In this document: positions 6,196-47,903 of the stretch, piece by piece | Layout of the letters: every line of letters starts with the position of its first letter | How positions within the stretch are numbered: the first letter of the stretch is position 1 | Assembly (NCBI RefSeq): GCF_026000115.1 | Contig: NZ_AP026867.1 | Coordinates: forward strand, 2,969,716-3,033,715 | Length of the DNA: 64,000 bases | Reading direction: 5' to 3' | Source of the DNA: Aureispira anguillae | GTDB taxonomy: Bacteria; Bacteroidota; Bacteroidia; Chitinophagales; Saprospiraceae | Translations under genes and position numbers: made by a program | Notes under the pieces: model-generated | Database searches by the model: none | What the model was told of the DNA's origin: nothing | The model's input: the letters and a program-made list of their open reading frames with translations, nothing else

Positions 6196-7038
6196 CTAAA
6201 AAACCATCATCTGTTGTGTTTGTTGTACACCATTACTTTTTATGGTTATCATATACGTTCCTGGTATCAAATTTTTGCAGTAAATAGAATGTGTACCAAA
6301 GCCATCTACCATAGCGGATTCTGAATAGACGGTTCTTCCCTGCAAATCCAATACATCAATGGTAATAGCACCAGCAGCTCCTCTATTTTTTACCTTAAAG
6401 CTACCGTCATTGGGAATTGGAAAAATATCAAAGTTATCTGTTTCTAAATCCAATAAATCAACAGAATTTGTAAAACTTTCTGTCAGAACCAGTTGGGTTG
6501 TTGGTGAAGTATTGTCTCCTGAAGTAGAAACGCCATCAACAGCTATTCCAATGCCATAAATGGTTACCGCTCCTGTCCCCAACATTGGAGCTTCCCAAGT
6601 AGTAACAAAACGCCCGTCCAAACTTGTCCCATCATGTTCTATAAATTCTCTACCGTTTGCAAGAGTTGCCAATTGAGTATTTGGGGTTGATGTGAGCACC
6701 ATATCCCCTGCATTATTATTAGAAGAATCTAGTACAACAGCTTGCATTCCATATCCCACAGGAGTCCCTCCACTACTTACAACAAATTCTAAAGTGTAAG
6801 TATTGCCAGGAATATAGCTGGAGACAACTGTTCCTAAATTATTCTTTACGATAATTTCAAGCTGAGGATTAGAAAAAGCTCCTTGATTAGGATGGCAAAG
6901 GGTACAATCTGAGGGCAAAACCCCTGGCGATCCAGTTCTATCCTTTCCTGTATACGTGGCTGGTCCTCCAGAAACACTCTGAAGCATAAACATTAGGGTA
7001 GCTCCAACAAATAGAGCTGCTAAAAACTTTGTTTTCAT
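6196..7038 (-). CDS. Secreted protein with T9SS C-terminal sorting domain (paralog 2)
   Basis: Signal peptide, a CTLCH motif near the N-terminus, and a C-terminal Por_Secre_tail-like domain (FPIPNDGSFKV...GTYMITIK). About 85% identical to the 7329-8171 product. Confidence 0.7.
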   Translation of the reverse strand: MKTKFLAALFVGATLMFMLQSVSGGPATYTGKDRTGSPGVLPSDCTLCHPNQGAFSNPQLEIIVKNNLGTVVSSYIPGNTYTLEFVVSSGGTPVGYGMQAVVLDSSNNNAGDMVLTSTPNTQLATLANGREFIEHDGTSLDGRFVTTWEAPMLGTGAVTIYGIGIAVDGVSTSGDNTSPTTQLVLTESFTNSVDLLDLETDNFDIFPIPNDGSFKVKNRGAAGAITIDVLDLQGRTVYSESAMVDGFGTHSIYCKNLIPGTYMITIKSNGVQQTQQMMVF

Positions 7039-7239
7039 AATTTTGAGTTTATAATCAAGCCAAGATGTTAAATTGGGTCTAACATATCAGCTGCCTTGGC
7101 AATTGCCAAAACGCCGCAAAACTATAGAAAATTATGACAGAAAACAATGCTTTTTTTTTATTCTTCTTATTCTTATAATAGATCTTTTTACCTTAACCAA
7201 AGAGTTAGAACTAATTGATAATCAACCATCAAATATCCA

Positions 7240-7279
7240 CAAAAAAAAATGCTTTGAATTTTAAAAATTCAAAGCACTC
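7240..7279 (-). terminator. Rho-independent terminator
   Basis: Perfect hairpin gctttgaattt/aaattcaaagc followed by a T9 run on the minus strand, downstream of the gene ending at 7329. It is a near-copy of the 6119-6158 terminator. Confidence 0.65.
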
Positions 7280-7328
7280 CATTTAAGATACGGCTATCTA
7301 TTCATGGCATTATTTTTATGTTTTTTTT

Positions 7329-8171
7329 CTAAAAAACCATCATTTGTTGTGTTTGTTGTACACCATTACTTTTTACAGTTATAATATACGTTCCTGGTAT
7401 TAAATTTTTGCAGTAAATAGAATGTGTCCCAAAGCCATCTACCATAGCGGATTCTGAATAGACGGTTCTTCCCTGCAAATCCAATACATCAATGGTAATA
7501 GAACCAGCAGCTCCTCTATTTTTTACCTTAAAACTACCGTCATTGGGAATTGGAAAAATATCAAAGTTATCGGTTTCTAAATCCAATAAATCAACACCAC
7601 TAGCAGGGCTTTCAGTCAAAACGAATTGGGTTGTTGGAGAGGTGTTATCGCCCGAAGTAGATGCGCCATTAACAGCCATTCCAACACCATAAATGGTTAC
7701 ATCTCCTGTCCCCGTAACAGGTGCTTCCCAAGTCGTCTTAAAAATCCCATTGCTACTTCTTCCACTATGCTCTATAAACTCTCTACCATTTCCAATAGTT
7801 GACAATTGAGTATTTGAGGTGGAAGTAGCAATCATATCTCCTGCATTATTATTAGAAGCATCTAAAGCAACGGCTTGCATTCCATACCCTACTGGGGTAC
7901 CTCCACTTGTTACCGCAAATTCTAGCGTGTAAATGTCACCAGGAACATAACTGGTAACCACTGTCCCTGAAGCATCTTTTACCGTAATCCCAATTTGAGG
8001 ATTAGAAAAAGACCCTTGGCTAGAATGACAAAGCGTACAATCTGAGGATAAGGCCCCTGGTGCCCCCGTTCTATCCTGTCCTCCCAATGCTGCTCGCCCT
8101 CCAGAAACACTCTGAAGGGTAAACATCAACGTTGCTCCAGCAAATAAGACTCCTAATAATTGTGTTTTCAT
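7329..8171 (-). CDS. Secreted protein with T9SS C-terminal sorting domain (paralog 3)
   Basis: Tandem duplicate of the 6196-7038 gene. Has a signal peptide, a CTLCH motif and an identical C-terminal sorting domain. Confidence 0.7.
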   Translation of the reverse strand: MKTQLLGVLFAGATLMFTLQSVSGGRAALGGQDRTGAPGALSSDCTLCHSSQGSFSNPQIGITVKDASGTVVTSYVPGDIYTLEFAVTSGGTPVGYGMQAVALDASNNNAGDMIATSTSNTQLSTIGNGREFIEHSGRSSNGIFKTTWEAPVTGTGDVTIYGVGMAVNGASTSGDNTSPTTQFVLTESPASGVDLLDLETDNFDIFPIPNDGSFKVKNRGAAGSITIDVLDLQGRTVYSESAMVDGFGTHSIYCKNLIPGTYIITVKSNGVQQTQQMMVF

Positions 8172-8325: not shown

Positions 8326-10599
8326 CTATTTTATCTCCTTCTGCATGGCAGAATTCACAAACAATATATTGCCAATGTCATCATAACCTTCAAAAAGTTC
8401 TTTTCCTCGATTAGCAACTAACTCAGAACGGAATCCCATAATCGTCAGGTCTGCCCCTGCTGATTTTTCGGCAACAATATTTTTGACATCGGTATCTACT
8501 CTATGGTTGATGAGCTCAATATTGTGAGAAGAAATTGGCAAGCGTCCTGTTTCTATCAACATTAAGAGTCTATTTTTTTCATTTTCTAACTCTTCATCTG
8601 GGTATAAAGCCATAATCTTAATATGGGCATCCTCCCAGTCTGAATGTCCTACAATAATATAGGCAATCAAAATCATCAAATTGGCATTTTCATAATCGTT
8701 GGAGGTAATCCAGATGTGAATTTCTTTGCGATGCCCAAAACCTCTTTCAGAAGTAGCCAAGATCATTAGATCAAAATCAATCGCTTTAATCAATTTAAAG
8801 TTTGCCACAATATCATCTAAGTTATCAGGGTGTAATTTCGCATACTCCAAGAATAACAAGTTATTGGGCTTCCCTGATATCCCAGGGAACTGCATCACCT
8901 GTGCAATAGCAGAAGTCATGGAAGGCGTTACCATGGTATCGATATAAACATTAGATTTTGATTTTTCTGCATCTCGAATGAGTCGTTCTTTCATTTTGGT
9001 TGCTCGATCTCCAGACTCTCTAGACAAATAGCCCTCTACTTGGTGTATATAGGTTCCAAAGCCGTATTTTTGAGACATCCATCTCAATAAATCAAAGGCT
9101 GCAATACGCTCAAAAGAATCTTTGGAAATACAAATAATGGAAGGTCGCCAACTGGTGCTTTGTTCCTTTTCTGCCTTTTGCAAAAACACTTGCAATTGAC
9201 GAGAAGTTTGAAAAATTACCCCCTGAAAAATCTCTGCTAGGTTTCGCTTGTCTCCATTGGTAATATTCACCCACAAGTAAACAATCACCAACATAACGAC
9301 TGCAATAATTGCATAACCTGGGTCCATCAAAAACATCAAACCAAAACACATCAACGCTCCTAATAAAGAAAGGTACCACTTAGATCTAAAAGAAGGACGA
9401 TAGGCTGGATCTGCTGCGAAATGCTGTAAAAAAGAAATCAAACACAACGAACCATAGGTTACCATAAAGAACATAGAAATAATCTTTGCCACAAAATCAA
9501 TTTCGCCCATTCCAATAAAGATAATAGCAATTCCGATGGTAATTAGAGAAGAATTGAAGGGTTCATCGTTTGCTCCTCGTCCTCTTGATAACCATTTGTT
9601 GACCGTTGCATTGGGCAAAATATTATCTCTAGCTATCGCCTGCAAGGTTCTAGGCGCCACCATTAGTGACCCTAACGCAGAGGATATAGTAGCCGCAGCC
9701 AAGCCGACAGGAATCAACCAGTAGCCCTGCCATGCGACATCCCCCATCACCAAACGAGAGGTATCCGCCAAAGCCTCTGGCGTAGCAGAAGAAGTCAATT
9801 TCCAAGCAATAAATACATAAATAATCATTCCTGAAACGGTTCCTGCCATCGTTCCTAAAGGAATAGATCGACTTGGGTTCTTTAAATCTCCCGATAAGCC
9901 TACTCCCGCTGTCATTCCCGTAAAGGCAGGGAATATAATTGCAAATACCGTAAAAAAAGCTTCGCTGTTCTCTATTTTACTCATAAAATTAAACTCCGTG
10001 GGGGCTGTGGTTATTACCCCTCCAACATCAACATAACTTCCCCCAATAAAAAAGGCTAGCATAACTAAAAATAGAATAAAAACAACTGCATAAAGCATTT
10101 TCACTCCTAAATCAGCTCCTTTGGTCAAAACAACGGCAGTCAACAAAAACAGAGCGGGTATACTCACAGTTTGCTTGTATCCCAAGAGTGTCTCAATAAT
10201 CTCTGGCACATAATAAGTGTTTAATATCCAATCAAACAAACTATTAAAAGCTTCAGCAAATGCCATAATATAAAACGCCACACTAACAGCCTGAGACATG
10301 TACAACGTAATCCCTATGGTAGATCCTATCACCAATCCAAAAGAACGAGAAATAATGTAATACTCTCCCCCTCCTTCTACTTTTTGGTTGGTTGCAATTT
10401 CGGCTATTGCCATAGCCGTAGGAATGGTCACCAAATGACCAATTAATATAATACCCAAGGTTCCCAGAAAACCAACATTACCAACCGCATAACCAAATCG
10501 CAAAAACATAATGGCTCCTAAAATGGTTGAAATGGCGGTAAAAAATACAGGGGCAGTTCCAAATCCAGCATTTTTTTCTTGTAATGACTTACTACTCAT
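8326..10599 (-). CDS. APC-superfamily permease with large C-terminal cytoplasmic domain (SLC12 cation-chloride cotransporter-like / amino acid permease)
   Basis: 757 aa. About 12 predicted TM helices in the first ~480 aa with an APC-like glycine-rich pattern, then a ~270-aa soluble C-terminal domain as in SLC12-type transporters. Confidence 0.6.
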   Translation of the reverse strand: MSSKSLQEKNAGFGTAPVFFTAISTILGAIMFLRFGYAVGNVGFLGTLGIILIGHLVTIPTAMAIAEIATNQKVEGGGEYYIISRSFGLVIGSTIGITLYMSQAVSVAFYIMAFAEAFNSLFDWILNTYYVPEIIETLLGYKQTVSIPALFLLTAVVLTKGADLGVKMLYAVVFILFLVMLAFFIGGSYVDVGGVITTAPTEFNFMSKIENSEAFFTVFAIIFPAFTGMTAGVGLSGDLKNPSRSIPLGTMAGTVSGMIIYVFIAWKLTSSATPEALADTSRLVMGDVAWQGYWLIPVGLAAATISSALGSLMVAPRTLQAIARDNILPNATVNKWLSRGRGANDEPFNSSLITIGIAIIFIGMGEIDFVAKIISMFFMVTYGSLCLISFLQHFAADPAYRPSFRSKWYLSLLGALMCFGLMFLMDPGYAIIAVVMLVIVYLWVNITNGDKRNLAEIFQGVIFQTSRQLQVFLQKAEKEQSTSWRPSIICISKDSFERIAAFDLLRWMSQKYGFGTYIHQVEGYLSRESGDRATKMKERLIRDAEKSKSNVYIDTMVTPSMTSAIAQVMQFPGISGKPNNLLFLEYAKLHPDNLDDIVANFKLIKAIDFDLMILATSERGFGHRKEIHIWITSNDYENANLMILIAYIIVGHSDWEDAHIKIMALYPDEELENEKNRLLMLIETGRLPISSHNIELINHRVDTDVKNIVAEKSAGADLTIMGFRSELVANRGKELFEGYDDIGNILFVNSAMQKEIK

Positions 10600-18959: not shown

Positions 18960-19916
18960 TACTGTAAGTTTTAAATTTAAGTGTTAATTAAAAACAAAAT
19001 AAGTATTGCTTTCGTGGGTGATTTTCGAATTTTAAATTGGTAATTTCCTAAAATTCGATACAAAACAAAGTCTTAACATTTAAATATCAGAATAATACGA
19101 CTTTACATATTCACTTTTTTTCTTTTTTAAAAAGTGTTCTTAGCCACCTCCAAATTGTTTTTTTTAAATCATTCGTTCTTATTCACTTGTCTTTATTTAT
19201 CCTTGGATTTCTTAAAAAATTCGCAGCTTACGATTTGGAATTTATTGGGTAGGATTTATCACTTAACTAAATGAGCGTTTGGCTAAAAATTTCTCACTTC
19301 ATTAAAAAACAATAATTCGTATTTTTTTATTCAAAAAATCGATACAGTTGGTTCTATTCAAAATAGGCTCAATAGTCGGTATATTTTGACTCCAACTCTA
19401 AAAAGCCCGTTTATTTTTTTTTATTTTAAAACGAATGTTCTACGCCATTTCATCCAGCTATTTAGCCCTCATCTAATGGCACCCATATCTTATTGAATTG
19501 TAACCGATAAATTATCTAGAAATGTATCTTTTTTTTTCATTTTAAGGTGGATATTTTGCCCAAATCAAAAACTTCCCTACCAACTTAATTGACAAAAAAA
19601 CAATATGTTATTAATTCAAATTAATGCTTTTAGCATTTTACTTTTTATTAAAAAAAAGTTTTCTAGTCCTAAATCATAAAAAATATAAACTGCATAAAAT
19701 GAGCAAAAAAAACATTTTTTTTGTTCTAATTTCTACTAGCCTTATCCTTCTAAGTTGTCTTCTCTAGCACTAATAGGGTAAAAACCTACCATCTTAAAAT
19801 AGCTCGATTAAACCCTTACTTTATTTAAATTGTTTTGTCCTCTACCTATCCTTTATTTTAAAATAACTTACATATTTCACAAAATTACTGTATTTTACGT
19901 AGTCTTTTTATAGCGG

Positions 19917-20160
19917 TAAGTAGATGGACAAAATTAGTAGTTTAAAAATTGGAGTATATTTTTTTCGCTAACGACTTGCAAAATGTAGCTTTAGCGGGCT
20001 AACTAAGCCTGCGACTTCACGCAGCGAGGCAAGTAAAGCGAGGCTTTTCAAGGAAGCCTAGCGGACAAAAGATGCTCACCACGTAGTCTCAGCACAGCTA
20101 ACTGATCTCACGAGCACTGCGAGTAATTTAATGTTAATTACTTTTGTCCATCTACTTATA
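19917..20160. repeat. MITE-like element with 17-21 bp terminal inverted repeats
   Basis: Left end gtaagtagatggacaaaattagtag (19917-19941). Right end acttttgtccatctacttat (20141-20160). The core taagtagatggacaaaa / ttttgtccatctactta is a perfect 17-bp inverted repeat. The ~200-bp GC-richer core sits inside 1.3 kb of AT-rich non-coding DNA. Confidence 0.55.
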
Positions 20161-20270
20161 AATCCCAATATTTCTCTTTTGATAAGAATCCCCCCCCTAA
20201 GCACTCAGTAATTATCAATAATTAGTATCACCAGAGATTCCTATGCATCTCACAATCAAGAACAAAAGCT

Positions 20271-41906: not shown

Positions 41907-42266
41907 TCCATTAATTGGTTGGTTGCTGCGAATAAAATCAGTTGCAGCAAATTAATTCGACATTCAACGAATAGAGTTGTATAAGCGAAAATGCAAGTTT
42001 TTTTTTGAAGATCAAGGAAAAACAGAAACTCATAGCTGTAAGCTATGATGTTGAGCATTTGACGATGAGATTCAGGAAAAAATAAATTGGCAGCCATACC
42101 TTTTCATTATTTATTTCCTTGGGTCATGATATAGTTCATGAACTTCATTTCGCAATAACTTCTAATATACTTACAAATTTGTTGGTAAAAAATAAAAATG
42201 TAAAAAATCCTATTAATACTAGTTGTTCCAATAGGATTTTAGTTCTTAACATTAACGGAGTAATGA

Positions 42267-43661
42267 TTAATCAAATAAGGTAGGAAAAAAGCTTCTATAA
42301 TGTGCGATCATCAATTGACGTAACAATAGACGTTTGTAAGCTACAGAGCCCCTAACATCTGCAATGGGGCTTATTTCTTTTTGGGCAATTTCCAAAGATT
42401 CGTCTAATACTGATTTACTAATTGTTTTTCCAATAAAAAATTGGGCTGTTTTGGCAAGGTATTTTGGTACAGGAGCCACCCCACCAGCAGAAATTCCAGC
42501 TTTGATGACTTCTCCTCTAGTATTGCATTCTATGCGTATAGCAGAATTAACAGAAGCAATATCCAGATAAGTTCGTTTACAAACTTTTTCAAAATTAAAA
42601 TAATGAGTTGATCGTGGCAATTCAAAATTTACTTCTTGCACAAATTCATCTGCTTTTAAATCTAGGGTTTTGTACCCCTTAAAAAACTGCTCTAGCGGCA
42701 ATTCACGTAGGGCACCATTGGCATTCAAAACAATATTAGCATTTAAAGCCAAAAGAAAAACCGCTAAATCACCAATAGGAGACGCATTAACCAAATTGCC
42801 TGCAATTGTCGCCATATTGCGAATTTGAAGGGATGAGATCAAATTAAAAAAATGATCTGTATTAGGGCTTAAGGATTGAATTATCTCAGATTGTTTGAGT
42901 GCTTCGGTAGCGGTTGAAGCGCCAATATGGCAATAGCCGCTCGCCTTCCAGATTCCCTTTAAGTCATTTCTGTTGTAAGCATGAACAATGTCTTCTGAAA
43001 ACATTTTTTGGGGGCGTTGAACATACAAATCTGTTCCTCCTCCTACCCAAATCGCTGACGCAGGAATTGCATCAGGCTTGGTTATAGGACTAGAATCTTT
43101 TAACTTTTTTGCTATTTCTAAAAAATAATTGGGTAAGAACCGATGTTCGACCAACCAACCTAATTTATCTTTATGATTTTTTGCAACCAACTGTTGAACA
43201 ACATATTCTGCGGCTCTTTCGATTGATTTGTATCCCGTACAACGGCAAATGTTGCCAGCAATAGCCAATATTGCTTGATCCTTTGTTATTTTTCCTTCAG
43301 ACAACGCCAGTCCACAAAGAGACATAATAAAGCCTGGTGTACAAAAACCACATTGTGTTCCTCCTTCGTCTGCCATAGCTTGCTGCACCACATTTAGCCC
43401 TTCAATATTGACTCCCTCTATGGTAACAATATGCCGACCTTCTACATTTCCTAAGGGCATAAGACAGGAAGTTACTGATTCATAGATTACTTTATCATTT
43501 TTTAAGGTCCCAATCAAGACAGTGCAAGCACCACAATCCCCTTCTCTACATCCCAGCTTAGTCCCTGTAAGACATTGTTGATACCGTATAAAATCCGCCA
43601 AGATCATCCCTGAGGGCAAATCTGTCTCTATAAGTTCCTGATTCAAAACAAATTTCATCAT
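42267..43661 (-). CDS. xdhA: Xanthine dehydrogenase small subunit (2Fe-2S plus FAD-binding)
   Basis: N-terminal plant-type and second [2Fe-2S] cysteine clusters (CREGDCGACTV, CGFCTPG, CRCTGY). The FAD-binding CO-dehydrogenase flavoprotein domain follows. 464 aa, as in two-subunit bacterial XDH. Confidence 0.85.
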   Translation of the reverse strand: MMKFVLNQELIETDLPSGMILADFIRYQQCLTGTKLGCREGDCGACTVLIGTLKNDKVIYESVTSCLMPLGNVEGRHIVTIEGVNIEGLNVVQQAMADEGGTQCGFCTPGFIMSLCGLALSEGKITKDQAILAIAGNICRCTGYKSIERAAEYVVQQLVAKNHKDKLGWLVEHRFLPNYFLEIAKKLKDSSPITKPDAIPASAIWVGGGTDLYVQRPQKMFSEDIVHAYNRNDLKGIWKASGYCHIGASTATEALKQSEIIQSLSPNTDHFFNLISSLQIRNMATIAGNLVNASPIGDLAVFLLALNANIVLNANGALRELPLEQFFKGYKTLDLKADEFVQEVNFELPRSTHYFNFEKVCKRTYLDIASVNSAIRIECNTRGEVIKAGISAGGVAPVPKYLAKTAQFFIGKTISKSVLDESLEIAQKEISPIADVRGSVAYKRLLLRQLMIAHYRSFFPTLFD

Positions 43662-43889
43662 ACTATATATATATCTTTATTTTTTTTCGTAAAAATTATA
43701 ATAAAAAAAACAATTCTAACGTTTGTTATAATATAGTTAATAAAATCATAAATTGTATTTTTAAAACTATATTATTTGTAATATTCATTTTTTTTTTGTA
43801 GATTAGTAGTATACGATTACCCAAGTATATTAAATAACTAATTAAAGTAAATTCAACTAATAAAATATGTCCCTTTAAGTCTAAAACTC

Positions 43890-44000
43890 ATTTTCTCCAT
43901 TCTCAAGAACTTCTCTATACTGAACTTTTCATCTTGAATCGTCATTAAATATTCCCTCATCTTATAATGAGCATTTGTAATATCTGAAGTGTCCTACCCC
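43890..44000. repeat. Direct repeat copy A (~110 bp) in AT-rich intergenic island
   Basis: Shares ttctccattct.a.aacttctctatactg…aatgag…ttgtaa.atctga.gt with copy B. About 75% identity. Confidence 0.5.
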
Positions 44001-44254
44001 TAGATACTAGTGTATTCTAGCACATGCAACCGAACAATTGTATTTTACATTCTCCATGAATTCTAATGATTCACTAAATTATATTTTTTTACATTATATT
44101 TTTTGTGATATTATTATTTTTTAATTACATTAGCATTATCTTAATATTCTGATCAGATATTGAAATACTACTATAAAACACTAAAAAACTAATTCAATGG
44201 AAAATATTATACGACAAAACTACACATTAGCAAAATTTACTTTTGACTAATTCC

Positions 44255-44352
44255 AACTTTCTCCATTCTTATAACTTCTCTATACTGTATATTTTCGCTG
44301 TACATTACTACTCATTTTCAATGAGTTACTTGTAACATCTGACGTACTTTAC
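44255..44352. repeat. Direct repeat copy B
   Basis: See copy A. Same orientation, ~365 bp downstream. Confidence 0.5.
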
Positions 44353-44808
44353 AAAAATAAAAACCACCTATTTTTTACATTTTACACTTTTGTTACTAAA
44401 AAGTTTGTGTTATAACCTCTAACAAAATATTTTTTGTACAGGTTGTTTTCACTTGGCTTTTATAACATAGGATGATTGTTCCCACAACGATCACTAGGGA
44501 TTGTTATATCAAAAAATAAATCTAATTGGGTTTATTTTCAGATGATGGTCACTAATAGATTATACTTTCTCCTTTGTGTATTTAAGTCACGGTGAGCATA
44601 AGGTTTTCATTTAACTTAAAAGATTTACTCTTAACATATTATAGCATTAATTTTCTGAAAACCAGAAAATTAAAACCGTCCCGTAATGCCTATAGGTAAG
44701 TATCTATGGCTGTATAATAAAACCAAGAGTTCTTTAAAAGTAAATAAAAATTGGATAATCACACAATCTTATTTTTTTACAACCCCCTTTTTTAAAGAAA
44801 ATTGCACC

Positions 44809-45930
44809 ATGAAAGAAAGAAATCAAAAAAGTCCCAGTTCCCAAGGAAACTCAAAAGCAAACCATTTGGAAGTATCTAAAAATTTGCAGCATTATCCTAA
44901 GGTAACATTCCCCATTAGTCCTTTTCATTCCCAACAGTTAACGATTTCAACATTAAAGTTAGATCATCATCCAGCAATTAATGATATTTTATCGGCAACC
45001 TCTAGGTTGTCAAAAGAATTTGGAATTCAGTTAGAGCAATCGTATGCCTCACATACTAGTATGACGGCATTCTTGTATCCCAAATCTGGTAAATACAGAA
45101 TAGTAATTGTAAATATTTTATACGACTTACTTTACTATATTGATGATCTATTCGGAGAAGACATAAGTACTGCCAATAATGAAGAAAAGCCTTCATTATC
45201 TGAAATAATGAACATCTGGAAAACAGGAAAAATTAATCCAGAGTATTATAACAACTTGACCAATCAAAAGATCAAGAATGTTTGTGATGCGATGCAATGG
45301 GTCAGAACTAAATTATTCCAAAGTTGTGAACCTGCCTTTTTCAAGAAAATATCTAAGTTGTTGTTTGAACATCTAAGAGATCAATTGAAACCGAATGCAT
45401 ACCAAAATATTGAAGAATATATTCACTTGAGAAGAAACTTTTCAGGCATGTATGTTGCAATCTATCTTATAGAATATTGCTACAGCAGGTATTTGACGCC
45501 TGAAATTTTAGAAAAAGTACCTAGTTTACAGAAAGCTATTGATTTGTGTGCTGATATTGGAGGATTATCTAATGATATTTTCTCTTATCCTAAAGAAAGT
45601 CACAGCAAATTTAACTTAGTCAACAGTTTTAGCGTTTTGAATGATTCCATTTCATTGGGGCAAGCTATCCAAAAATCAATTGATTTGGTTAACAATTGCC
45701 ACGCTGATTTTAATGCTGCAATCAAACAAATACATACTGAAATAGTTGGGTTAGAAATAGATCAGAAAGCAACTGTCTTGCATTTTGCTGACGGATTAAA
45801 ATCTATTTTATCCGCAACTTACCACTGGCAGTTGGTTACTCAACGCTATAGACATGACAACCACATATTAGAAGATCTTAAGTATCAGTCTGATTATACC
45901 TTTGATATTGATATCAAAGATGCTAGCTAA
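44809..45930 (+). CDS. Class I terpene synthase (terpene cyclase)
   Basis: Asp-rich motif YYIDDLFGED (DDxxD/E-type). NSE/DTE triad NDIFSYPKE (NDxxSxxxE) lies ~146 aa downstream. An RY pair (VTQRYRHD) lies ~90 aa after NSE. Size ~373 aa from MKERNQ. All of these are hallmarks of bacterial class I terpene cyclases. Confidence 0.7.
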   Translation: MKERNQKSPSSQGNSKANHLEVSKNLQHYPKVTFPISPFHSQQLTISTLKLDHHPAINDILSATSRLSKEFGIQLEQSYASHTSMTAFLYPKSGKYRIVIVNILYDLLYYIDDLFGEDISTANNEEKPSLSEIMNIWKTGKINPEYYNNLTNQKIKNVCDAMQWVRTKLFQSCEPAFFKKISKLLFEHLRDQLKPNAYQNIEEYIHLRRNFSGMYVAIYLIEYCYSRYLTPEILEKVPSLQKAIDLCADIGGLSNDIFSYPKESHSKFNLVNSFSVLNDSISLGQAIQKSIDLVNNCHADFNAAIKQIHTEIVGLEIDQKATVLHFADGLKSILSATYHWQLVTQRYRHDNHILEDLKYQSDYTFDIDIKDAS

Positions 45931-45993: not shown

Positions 45994-46407
45994 TTAGTGT
46001 TCAGCCTTTGCTATTTGTTCTAGCAACCAAGCGACTGCATCTTCCCTTTCTGTAAAAATTTTAACAGGTGCCTGTCCTTTTACTTTATTGGACGAAGCAG
46101 ATTTTCCCGTTAACTTCAGATAAAGATTTCCTACTACCCTTGAACCAAATGAGGTAGTCAATAAAGCACTAGCTACTTCCCCTATTTCAGATTTTTCATA
46201 ACATTCTAAGACTTCTTTACTGATATAGTTGCTAGGCATGTTACTCAACATAGCTCTAGGTTTCCCATCTACAGCTTTTTTTAACATTGCTATATTTTCC
46301 TGAGCTATCTCTACCGTATCTGCTTCCTTCCAATCTTTATTATTTTCTAGTTCTACAATACCATTTGAGTTAACAGTAATTGTTAGCGCCCTTGTTTTGA
46401 ATTGCAT
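45994..46407 (-). CDS. Small conserved protein, paralog 1 (possible STAS-like fold)
   Basis: 137 aa. About 75% identical to the neighbouring 46573-46983 product. The C-terminal ...KGQAPVKIFTEREDAVAWL pattern is reminiscent of STAS/SpoIIAA-like domains (weak). Confidence 0.45.
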   Translation of the reverse strand: MQFKTRALTITVNSNGIVELENNKDWKEADTVEIAQENIAMLKKAVDGKPRAMLSNMPSNYISKEVLECYEKSEIGEVASALLTTSFGSRVVGNLYLKLTGKSASSNKVKGQAPVKIFTEREDAVAWLLEQIAKAEH

Positions 46408-46572
46408 TATGTGTTTTTAATATTAAAAAGTGTGTATAAAAAAAGAAATGCTTATTTTTGGGAACCCAAGTTAATTAAAATTATATATTTTTTAATGGTG
46501 GATTCTTTCTTTCTTTTTAATATTATTTACACTTATTTAAAAATAAAAAATACATAAAATCGTTTCACCTGC

Positions 46573-46983
46573 TTATCTACTACTTGCAATCTGCTCCAAA
46601 AGCCACTCAACAGCATCCTCCTTCTTCGTAAAAATTTTAACAGGTGCCTGTCCTTTTACCTCACTAGATTTGGCTGACTTTCCTGTTAATTTTAAATAAA
46701 CATTTCCTACCACTTTGGAACCAAAGGAAGTAGTCAATAGAGCACTAGCGACTTCACCAATCTCAGCTTTATTATAGCATTCTAGCACATCCTTGCTCAT
46801 ATAAGTGCTAGGCATGTAACTCAACATAGCTCTAGTTTTTCCTGCTACAGCTTTCTTGATCATAGCGACATTCTCCTGAGCGATCTCTACCGTGTCTGGT
46901 TGTTTCCACTCTGGGTTTGTCACCAGTTCTATAATATCATCTGGTCTAACAATAATCGTCAAAGCTCTCGTTTTGTATTGCAT
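46573..46983 (-). CDS. Small conserved protein, paralog 2
   Basis: 136 aa, tandem duplicate of the 45994-46407 gene. Confidence 0.45.
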   Translation of the reverse strand: MQYKTRALTIIVRPDDIIELVTNPEWKQPDTVEIAQENVAMIKKAVAGKTRAMLSYMPSTYMSKDVLECYNKAEIGEVASALLTTSFGSKVVGNVYLKLTGKSAKSSEVKGQAPVKIFTKKEDAVEWLLEQIASSR

Positions 46984-47183: not shown

Positions 47184-47903
47184 ATGAAAAAACAAAGTAT
47201 CAATAGAGAGTACAATTTTCCAGATGCTAGTTTGTATTCTCAATGCAAAGAGCGTATTCAATACATCAAACGGGACCAAAAAGAATTTGAAAGCTATGCC
47301 TATACCAATGGTAAAATTGAAAATTTCGAATTGCTTTGTAAAAAGTTCTCTGATCAACCCGATGATGATGAACTGATTGGCAATCAAATGGAGGCAACCA
47401 ATAAAAAAAATGAAGCTAAAGAAAAGCTAAAAACAGCAATCCGCTCTGTCATGACACGAGTCGCCAGCAAGTACAATACTCGTTCTGGGCATTATCGAAA
47501 ATTTGGTACGGTTAAAATGAATGACATGAGTGACCCTAAGTTATTATTGTGTGGTCGTCGAGTCGTACGAGTTTCTAATAAATTGCTAGACTTTTTAGCC
47601 GAAACTGGCCTTCGCCAATCCCACATTGATATCATACAACAAGCTGCCTCTGCTTTTGAAAATGCCATTCATATACAACAAGACAAGATTTCAGATCGAG
47701 ATATTTTTGTAGAAAAGCGTATTGAATTGGGCAATGAGTTATATCGTGAATTAGTATTGGTTTGTAACATAGGAAAAGATATTTGGGCAGAAAACAACAA
47801 AGCCAAATACGAGAACTATACGATCTACGAAAGCAATAACGACCAGAAAAAAGCACGTAAACAACGCCTTAAAGAAGAGGAAATGACCAAAAAGAAAAAT
47901 TAA
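47184..47903 (+). CDS. Hypothetical Lys/Glu-rich protein
   Basis: 239-aa ORF, no signal peptide, charged C-terminus. No recognised motifs. Confidence 0.35.
   Translation: MKKQSINREYNFPDASLYSQCKERIQYIKRDQKEFESYAYTNGKIENFELLCKKFSDQPDDDELIGNQMEATNKKNEAKEKLKTAIRSVMTRVASKYNTRSGHYRKFGTVKMNDMSDPKLLLCGRRVVRVSNKLLDFLAETGLRQSHIDIIQQAASAFENAIHIQQDKISDRDIFVEKRIELGNELYRELVLVCNIGKDIWAENNKAKYENYTIYESNNDQKKARKQRLKEEEMTKKKN

Follow-up and report, generated by a model that had tools for sequence, protein, structure and literature searches.

Introduction

Tandem promoters that serve a single gene are familiar from the P1/P2 pairs of bacterial rRNA and other operons, and the serial arrangement of leader elements before one gene is known from tandem glycine aptamers and tandem T-boxes. 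Within the Bacteroidota, sigma-A promoters have been described for Bacteroides fragilis and Flavobacterium; they possess a TTG at position -33 and a TAnnTTTG box at position -7. To our knowledge, very little is known about the regulation of bacterial terpene synthase genes, and almost nothing about it in the Bacteroidota.

We analyzed the DNA upstream of a terpene synthase gene of Aureispira anguillae (Bacteroidota, Saprospiraceae) within a 64-kb stretch of its genome (referred to as the window, in which all positions are counted). An initial annotation had noted a pair of direct repeats of about 110 bp upstream of this gene and had offered three candidate explanations for them: duplicated sRNA genes, duplicated promoter/operator modules, or the decayed ends of a mobile element. 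We report that these repeats are parts of a larger unit, and we regard it as reasonably probable that the locus consists of tandem promoters, each of them followed by a copy of the first element of a structured 5' leader of the terpene synthase gene.

The Terpene Synthase Locus of A. anguillae

The terpene synthase gene (44809-45930, + strand) encodes a class I enzyme of 373 amino acids (Pfam PF19086 and PF03936) that is 100% identical to the NCBI entry 'terpene synthase family protein [Aureispira anguillae]'. It contains the DDxxD-like motif DDLFGED and the NSE-like motif NDIFSYPKE; characterized sesquiterpene cyclases are only distant matches to it, and our literature search found no paper naming both Aureispira and terpene synthase. 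Upstream of the gene lies an intergenic gap of 1147 bp (43662-44808; about 25% G+C) that is home to both repeats and is bounded on its other side by the divergently oriented gene for a xanthine dehydrogenase (XDH) small subunit (42267-43661, - strand; Pfam Fer2_2, FAD_binding_5, and CO_deh_flav_C). The description of this region as AT-rich and free of open reading frames was borne out, with no frame of at least 40 amino acids present in the gap.

Several features of the surroundings were recorded along the way. The sequence TATAATAAAAAAAACAATTCTAACGTTTGTTAT is situated at 43697-43730, between the XDH start codon and the first repeat unit; it is almost identical in the related locus L004 and may be a promoter or operator of the divergent XDH gene. 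While only a 360-bp gap with a 64-aa ORF (41907-42266) separates the genes for the large and small XDH subunits in the window, one or two Peptidase_S74/Por_Secre_tail genes are found between them in relatives (L004 1549-3285; L026 930-2504). Genes for DUF7793-like proteins of 135-140 amino acids form tandem arrays that flank the terpene synthase gene; there are two copies in the window (45994-46983, - strand), three each in L007 (5768-7301) and L030, and three plus four in L009 (3628-5118 and 7145-9273). The arrays are always followed by a gene for a protein of 238-240 amino acids (47184-47903 in the window) without a Pfam or NCBIfam match. The window possesses a second long gap, located between divergent genes (18960-20270; 1311 bp), in which there are no ORFs of at least 100 amino acids and no Rfam match. 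Its + strand contains 13056 C versus 10317 G residues, and most genes reside on the - strand.

The Repeats Are the 3' Parts of a Tandem Unit

Two repeats in the same orientation are present with the positions and motifs reported by the initial annotation, and their exactly matching blocks are offset by 365-366 bp. The estimate of roughly 75% identity was a fair one: a global alignment of 43892-43994 with 44258-44349 contains 73 matches, corresponding to 81% identity over ungapped and 69.5% over all columns. Chance similarity of AT-rich DNA, below about 60% identity, had been named as an outcome that would undo the finding; the local alignment (43892-43990 with 44258-44345) scored 50, above every one of 500 shuffles (mean 18.8, standard deviation 2.9, maximum 34). 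The exact blocks TTTCTCCATTCT and AACTTCTCTATACTG occur in the two repeats and nowhere else in the window. CRISPR had been excluded from the outset, correctly so, given only two copies of at least 100 nt that are about 70-80% identical and are embedded in a unit of about 330 bp.

Self-comparison of the region uncovered a second, equally significant repeat pair that had been overlooked (43749-43812 versus 44075-44139; 75% identity, offset 326). In its full extent (43736-43811 and 44064-44138), this sequence, which we refer to as block A, opens each of two units of about 280-330 bp that are arranged head to tail: M1 (43736-44013) and M2 (44063-44374). When the window copies were combined with their orthologues into an nhmmer profile, the profile matched 43736-44008 and 44063-44366 from end to end. 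In each unit, the conserved AT-rich block A is followed by a variable stretch and then by a core of about 110 bp; the two repeats noted initially are these cores, the conserved 3' parts of the tandem unit. The variable AT-rich segment of M1 (43812-43871) carries CTAATT(C/A)A-like motifs and is 65% identical to that of L004 (over 43812-43880); the segment of M2 (44139-44237) is about 38 nt longer and 72% identical. In the metagenomic Aureispira locus L031, the corresponding stretch (about 1800-1930) contains several tandem copies of a unit of about 14-28 nt (ATCACTACTGCTTT / CACTACACTTGTA), and shorter CACTAC or CTAATTCA motifs are found at this place in other copies, including those of the window (about 43836-43862 and 44190-44200).

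Core 1 (43872-44013, + strand; nhmmer match 43881-43994) is recovered by the covariance model R1 with 58.8 bits (E=6e-9) and core 2 (44238-44374, + strand), which is collinear into the leader that follows, with 91.8 bits (E=2e-15). M1, with its poorer fit to the family model, may have taken on a different role or kept only part of the original one.

The units do not code for protein. Owing to an indel of 1 nt between the exact blocks, the two window cores are out of frame with each other; they have stops in every frame on both strands, and no open frame runs across 15 copies of the core, which are separated by indels of 1-3 nt. Two short - strand ORFs (43853-43960, 35 aa; 44237-44305, 22 aa) share 'RMEK' solely through nucleotide identity and were dismissed as a small protein. 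A pseudogene of the DUF7793, terpene synthase, XDH, or 239-aa genes was likewise rejected, the best tblastn match within 43600-44900 having an E value of about 0.7 apart from the genes' own ends. With Rfam, nothing in the window reached the gathering score, nothing was found within 43600-44900 even at E≤10, and the better-conserved leader of L007 gave only two chance-level matches; a known RNA family was dismissed on these grounds.

Both Units Are Conserved in Relatives

Related loci (given with the prefix L) were fetched by exact-protein look-ups and collection scans, and a total of 220 kb of Aureispira DNA was searched. With nhmmer and the covariance model, we found 15 copies of the core in this DNA, upstream of both terpene synthase paralogues, TS1 and TS2. 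Each of the 15 precedes the start codon of a terpene synthase gene by 290-510 nt and is on the same strand as that gene; none lies elsewhere. The proposal that the repeats are decayed ends of a mobile element fails on these data: neither the window nor the 220 kb contains further copies, many genomes have the unit at an orthologous position, conservation of both copies is strong, and no inverted repeats bound the units.

Several genomes share the gene order XDH, unit and leader, TS1, P450, three DUF7793 genes, unit and leader, TS2, three to four DUF7793 genes, the 238-aa gene, and hisIE. A. anguillae, L004, L007, L030, and L034 possess only a TS2-like gene, located next to XDH. In more distant Aureispira, each terpene synthase gene is accompanied by a single unit. 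The closest relative sampled (L004-L006), whose terpene synthase is 83% identical to that of A. anguillae at the amino acid level, has both units at collinear positions. Absence of the repeats from related strains, which the initial annotation would have held against them, is thus not what we observed. At loci L011-L017, whose terpene synthases are 53-74% identical, the core and leader profiles no longer match; ORF-free upstream regions of 1.0-2.4 kb are present at all Aureispira and Saprospiraceae terpene synthase loci that we examined, including those without a profile match, and more divergent versions of the leader may exist.

Comparison of A. anguillae with L004 gave a graded picture of conservation. 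Four-fold degenerate sites are 39.6% identical and hence saturated. Block A, in contrast to this background, is 85.5% (M1) and 92% (M2) identical, with a stretch of about 40 nt in M1 being the same in both genomes. For the core, identity amounts to 77% in M1 and 79.5% in M2; the M1/M2 junction (44014-44062) reaches 56% and the remaining leader 61%. Since both units are kept above the saturated four-fold background, neither copy is a decaying relic. Judged by these comparisons, both copies are under selection, and the 70-80% identity between M1 and M2 is best read as constraint and not as the mark of a recent duplication.

These numbers bear on the idea that M1 is a functionless leftover and that M2 alone works, M1 having arisen through a local tandem duplication or through a TS1-P450-DUF7793 deletion that joined the upstream regions of the two paralogues. 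Loss of the middle part of the gene order found in other Aureispira would indeed give the observed layout, and M1 both scores below M2 on the family model and is not followed by the rest of the leader. A neutral relic, however, would have decayed to the background set by the four-fold sites and the junction, far below the values found for block A and the core of M1, and we consider this explanation highly unlikely.

The layout is compatible with an origin of the two units by local tandem duplication as well as by a TS1-P450-DUF7793 deletion. The units stand head to tail, and the DNA between them (about 50-70 nt; 43995-44062 in the homology test) has no significant homology to the flanks of the units or to TS2-type upstream DNA. 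Local alignments of the junction to all candidate source regions were non-significant (p 0.2-0.46), including those with the TS2-type upstream DNA of L026, with which it has one exact 10-mer (CTAGATACTA) in common. The tree of the units is weakly resolved and does not separate those of the TS1 type from those of the TS2 type.

Each Unit Opens with a Promoter-Like Block

Block A of M1 (43736-43811, + strand; nhmmer with the block A profile, E=1e-10) contains a -33-like TTG at 43776-43778 and the -7-like box TAGATTAG at 43799-43806, with a predicted transcription start at about 43812. In block A of M2 (44064-44138, + strand; E=5e-10), the TTG is at 44103-44105, the box TACATTAG at 44126-44133, and the predicted start at about 44139. 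The two copies are 327 bp apart, have the same 20-nt spacer, and are oriented toward the terpene synthase gene. The upstream part of the first copy is formed by an AT-rich half-palindrome (TTAAT-N10-ATTnn) and a T-run that follows it.

In 11 of 14 units, the pattern TTG-N20-TAnnTT[T/A]G occupies one and the same position of the alignment, always with a spacer of exactly 20 nt. This relaxed form of the -7 box was adopted because a scan of the intergenic regions for the canonical TTG-N17-21-TAnnTTTG on both strands had yielded nothing except two incidental - strand matches in L026. L031 and L035 have, in the aligned box, the Bacteroidota consensus without a mismatch (TATCTTTG); the window boxes agree with TAnnTTTG at five of the six specified positions and have TTAG in place of TTTG. 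Within the intergenic region of the window, the relaxed pattern occurs twice on the + strand, both times in block A, and not once on the - strand, as compared with 0.07 occurrences in shuffled sequences. Window-wide, 8 of its 16 occurrences are intergenic, whereas only 13% of the DNA is, and several of them are located 40-270 nt upstream of genes. A scan for E. coli-type sigma-70 promoters (8 found, 9.6 expected) was uninformative in such AT-rich DNA.

Block A thus resembles the sigma-A promoters of the Bacteroidota in its TTG-N20-TAnnTTxG arrangement, in the exact consensus of two Aureispira copies, and in the enrichment of the pattern in intergenic DNA of the window. It differs from them in the TTAG of the window copies and in a spacer and an upstream region that are far more conserved than is usual for promoters. 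We infer from this combination of motifs that block A fires as a promoter. The near-invariant spacer, together with the upstream half-palindrome TTAAT-N10-ATTAA, suggests an operator that overlaps the promoter; given a spacer conserved beyond the needs of a plain promoter, block A may be an operator in addition to a promoter, or in its place.

Among the three explanations of the initial annotation, duplicated promoter/operator modules came closest, with the correction that the 110-bp repeats themselves are not the promoter: they are situated about 60-200 nt (M1) and 100-235 nt (M2) downstream of block A. A weak blastn hint of a block-A-like promoter ahead of the DUF7793 genes (L007 7427-7370) did not hold up on inspection.

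The Core Contains a Covarying Hairpin

Structure prediction on aligned copies had been proposed in the initial annotation as a check. When carried out with RNAalifold on the 15 copies of the core, it returned a single hairpin of 5 bp that is kept in all of them and shows compensatory changes in five of its five pairs. In core 1, it is formed by CTCAT (43956-43960) and ATGAG (43967-43971) and is flanked by the conserved motifs TCTCTATACTG and TTGTAATATCTGA; in core 2, by ACTCATT (44310-44316) and AATGAGT (44320-44326), and there it is present in the centroid fold. Elsewhere, the arms read GCTCC/GGAGC, ACTCC/GGAGT, GTTCC/GGAAC, or TTGCTCT/AGAGCAA. Pairing is possible in 87.7% of cases, compared with 32-58% in slid controls, and none of 500 shuffles reached the observed pairing or covariation score. 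The wobble pairs (9 G·U versus 2 C·A) favor an RNA of the + strand. On both of its sides, the hairpin is accompanied by invariant unpaired motifs (..TCTCTATACyGTA.. and ..GTAnnAnnTGA..), and motifs containing GTAC recur in the core and in the leader. Only these 5 bp are supported in the core, and the thermodynamic stability of the window cores on either strand is no different from that of shuffled sequences (z-scores of +0.5 and -1.1). We considered by eye whether the core motifs might pair with the region of the start codon and dropped the idea; the window copies show no covariation for it.

Such strong conservation of primary sequence with so little structure invites the alternative that the conserved blocks act in DNA, with block A and the core motifs (ATACyGTA... 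and GTAnnAnnTGA) serving as operators for a transcription factor, the hairpin being an inverted-repeat site, and the duplication doubling the number of operators. The nearly invariant promoter spacer and the recurring GTAC-containing motifs would suit it, and the flanking motifs of the core could be DNA sites. The hairpin arms, however, vary freely and yet stay complementary, as expected of an RNA stem and not of a sequence-specific protein site; the wobble asymmetry in the core, and that in the leader described below, speaks for a + strand RNA, and operators are not usually located 60-235 bp downstream of a start site. All in all, we judge this alternative rather unlikely. From the covariation, we infer that the core acts in RNA, for instance as a binding or folding element for a regulator; it could be a platform for the binding of a protein or an RNA, or an element for folding or pausing.

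Could transcription of the cores instead proceed on the - strand, giving an antisense RNA or part of an extended leader for the divergent XDH operon? An exact -7 consensus, TATTTTTG, is present on the - strand just to the right of core 2 (44359-44352), inspection of the alignments revealed TAATTTTG at the corresponding position in about half of the other copies, and - strand genes lie downstream in every context. This box is nonetheless absent from M1, shifted by 1 nt in several copies, and has no correctly spaced TTG; the wobble pairs of the hairpin favor the opposite strand. Moreover, the unit tracks the terpene synthase gene and not XDH, since TS2-type copies are not located beside XDH. Transcription of the cores from the - strand therefore strikes us as exceedingly unlikely.

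A Structured Leader Connects the Second Unit to the Start Codon

The single-copy remainder of the leader (44375-44808, + strand) was analyzed with RNAalifold on 10 sequences, which revealed four helices with covariation. A long-range helix (44401-44418 with 44753-44770) begins about 27 nt after core 2, encloses about 330 nt, and ends about 38 nt before the ATG, which it leaves uncovered. The three others are local hairpins (44474-44478/44488-44492, 44648-44655/44665-44672, and 44677-44679/44688-44690). In total, 90.9% of the positions tallied are paired, and 13 of 31 pairs have changed on both sides, compared with 4.1±1.5 in shuffles (0 of 500 reaching the observed value) and 2-6 in slid controls. 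The wobble cells comprise 35 G·U versus 8 A·C, which places the leader RNA on the + strand, that of the terpene synthase gene. Since a + strand helix starts at 44401, the RNA has to begin upstream of this position, where block A provides the only promoter-like elements. No conserved ORF is present in the single-copy leader. The 430-500 nt or so between core and ATG are conserved at most of the terpene synthase loci that have a core.

About 40-60 nt downstream of the core, most Aureispira leaders (L007, L026, L028, L030, L031, and L035) also contain a small hairpin whose loop is GNRA-like and in which TCGC-AAGA-GTGA covaries with TCAC-GAAA-GTGA and TCAC-GGAA-GTGA; it has been deleted in the lineage of A. 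anguillae and L004.

Within one genome, the upstream regions of TS1 and TS2 (L026 4112-5003 versus 9279-10163; L028 2067-2776 versus 6617-8003, with TS1 of 376 and TS2 of 355 amino acids) are 82-86% identical, whereas the coding sequences are 73-75% identical at the nucleotide and about 60% at the amino acid level. This indicates a strong constraint on the leader or its gene conversion.

The leader data also bear on whether each unit is a separate sRNA gene, as the initial annotation had contemplated. In such a scheme, block A would drive an sRNA of about 200-240 nt terminating beyond the core, and the terpene synthase gene would rely on a promoter of its own farther downstream. In its favor, a promoter-like block is present in each unit, A. 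anguillae and L004 resemble one another more in the units than in the leader downstream of them, and an imperfect hairpin read from the sequence (CTAGATAC at 44000-44007 and GTATTCTAG at 44012-44020), with an equivalent in L004, bridges the boundary between core 1 and the junction. Against it, no terminator-like site was found in 43600-44900, no TTG-N17-21-TAnnTTTG is located between core and start codon in eight intergenic regions scanned, and the core is almost devoid of structure of its own. The + strand helices that run from the end of the unit to the start codon, the long-range one in need of a promoter farther upstream, fit poorly with RNAs ending after the core. We therefore consider separate sRNA genes unlikely.

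A Model for the Duplicated Unit and Comparison with Known Systems

The explanation that we favor, tandem promoters with a duplicated first leader element, can be laid out as follows. Each unit would start with a Bacteroidota-type sigma-A promoter (-33 TTG, 20-nt spacer, -7 TAnATTAG) that faces the terpene synthase gene and is preceded by an AT-rich, operator-like half-palindrome. The promoter would be followed by a variable AT-rich stretch and by the core, predicted to form a short hairpin between two conserved unpaired motifs. In most Aureispira, a single such unit would constitute the 5' end of a structured leader RNA of about 700 nt that extends to the start codon. In A. anguillae and the closest of the relatives sampled, promoter and first leader element would have been duplicated, so that the terpene synthase gene would be read from two tandem promoters, P1 (about 43812) and P2 (about 44139), and the transcripts from P1 would carry two copies of the core. 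Both units would contribute to expression.

The locus thereby offers a regulatory region that is concrete and testable. It comprises a pair of predicted promoters, a hairpin element that is conserved in the leader, and about 430 nt of leader with long-range pairing, and it is conserved across the genus and between two paralogous synthases more strongly than are the enzymes themselves. A bolder reading, which we deem quite unlikely, is that the leader of about 700 nt represents a new class of large regulatory RNA controlling the terpene synthases of Aureispira; it might sense a metabolite of the isoprenoid pathway or bind a dedicated regulator, and the A. anguillae lineage would possess a two-input version through duplication of the promoter and the first sensor element. 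If true, this would explain why the upstream regions of TS1 and TS2 are more alike than their coding sequences, and a sensor RNA of this kind would be the first known to be linked to terpenoid biosynthesis. Even otherwise, the duplicated unit is a natural experiment in the duplication of a promoter and a leader, kept by selection in two lineages.

The leader and its repeated element have no family in Rfam and no entry in the literature that we searched and are restricted to the genus, while their general type, tandem promoters combined with a structured 5' leader, is a familiar one. Like the P1/P2 promoters of rRNA operons, the locus has two same-orientation promoter-like blocks before one gene, with identical spacing in both; it differs from them in that the promoter has been duplicated together with the first 200 nt or so of the leader, with a repeated leader element in the longer predicted transcript as a result. 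With structured cis-regulatory 5' leaders and riboswitch-like RNAs of the kind collected in Rfam, the Aureispira leader shares its position upstream of the gene and on its strand, its conservation across species and paralogues, its covarying helices, and its non-coding nature. It departs from these RNAs in having no Rfam match even at E≤10 and no identified ligand, terminator, or platform sequestering the start codon, in its length of about 700 nt, far above that of a typical riboswitch, and in having been seen in one genus only. Tandem glycine aptamers and tandem T-boxes likewise repeat a leader element in series before one gene; in contrast to them, each Aureispira copy comes with its own promoter-like block and contains one small hairpin, with nothing to suggest the binding of a ligand.
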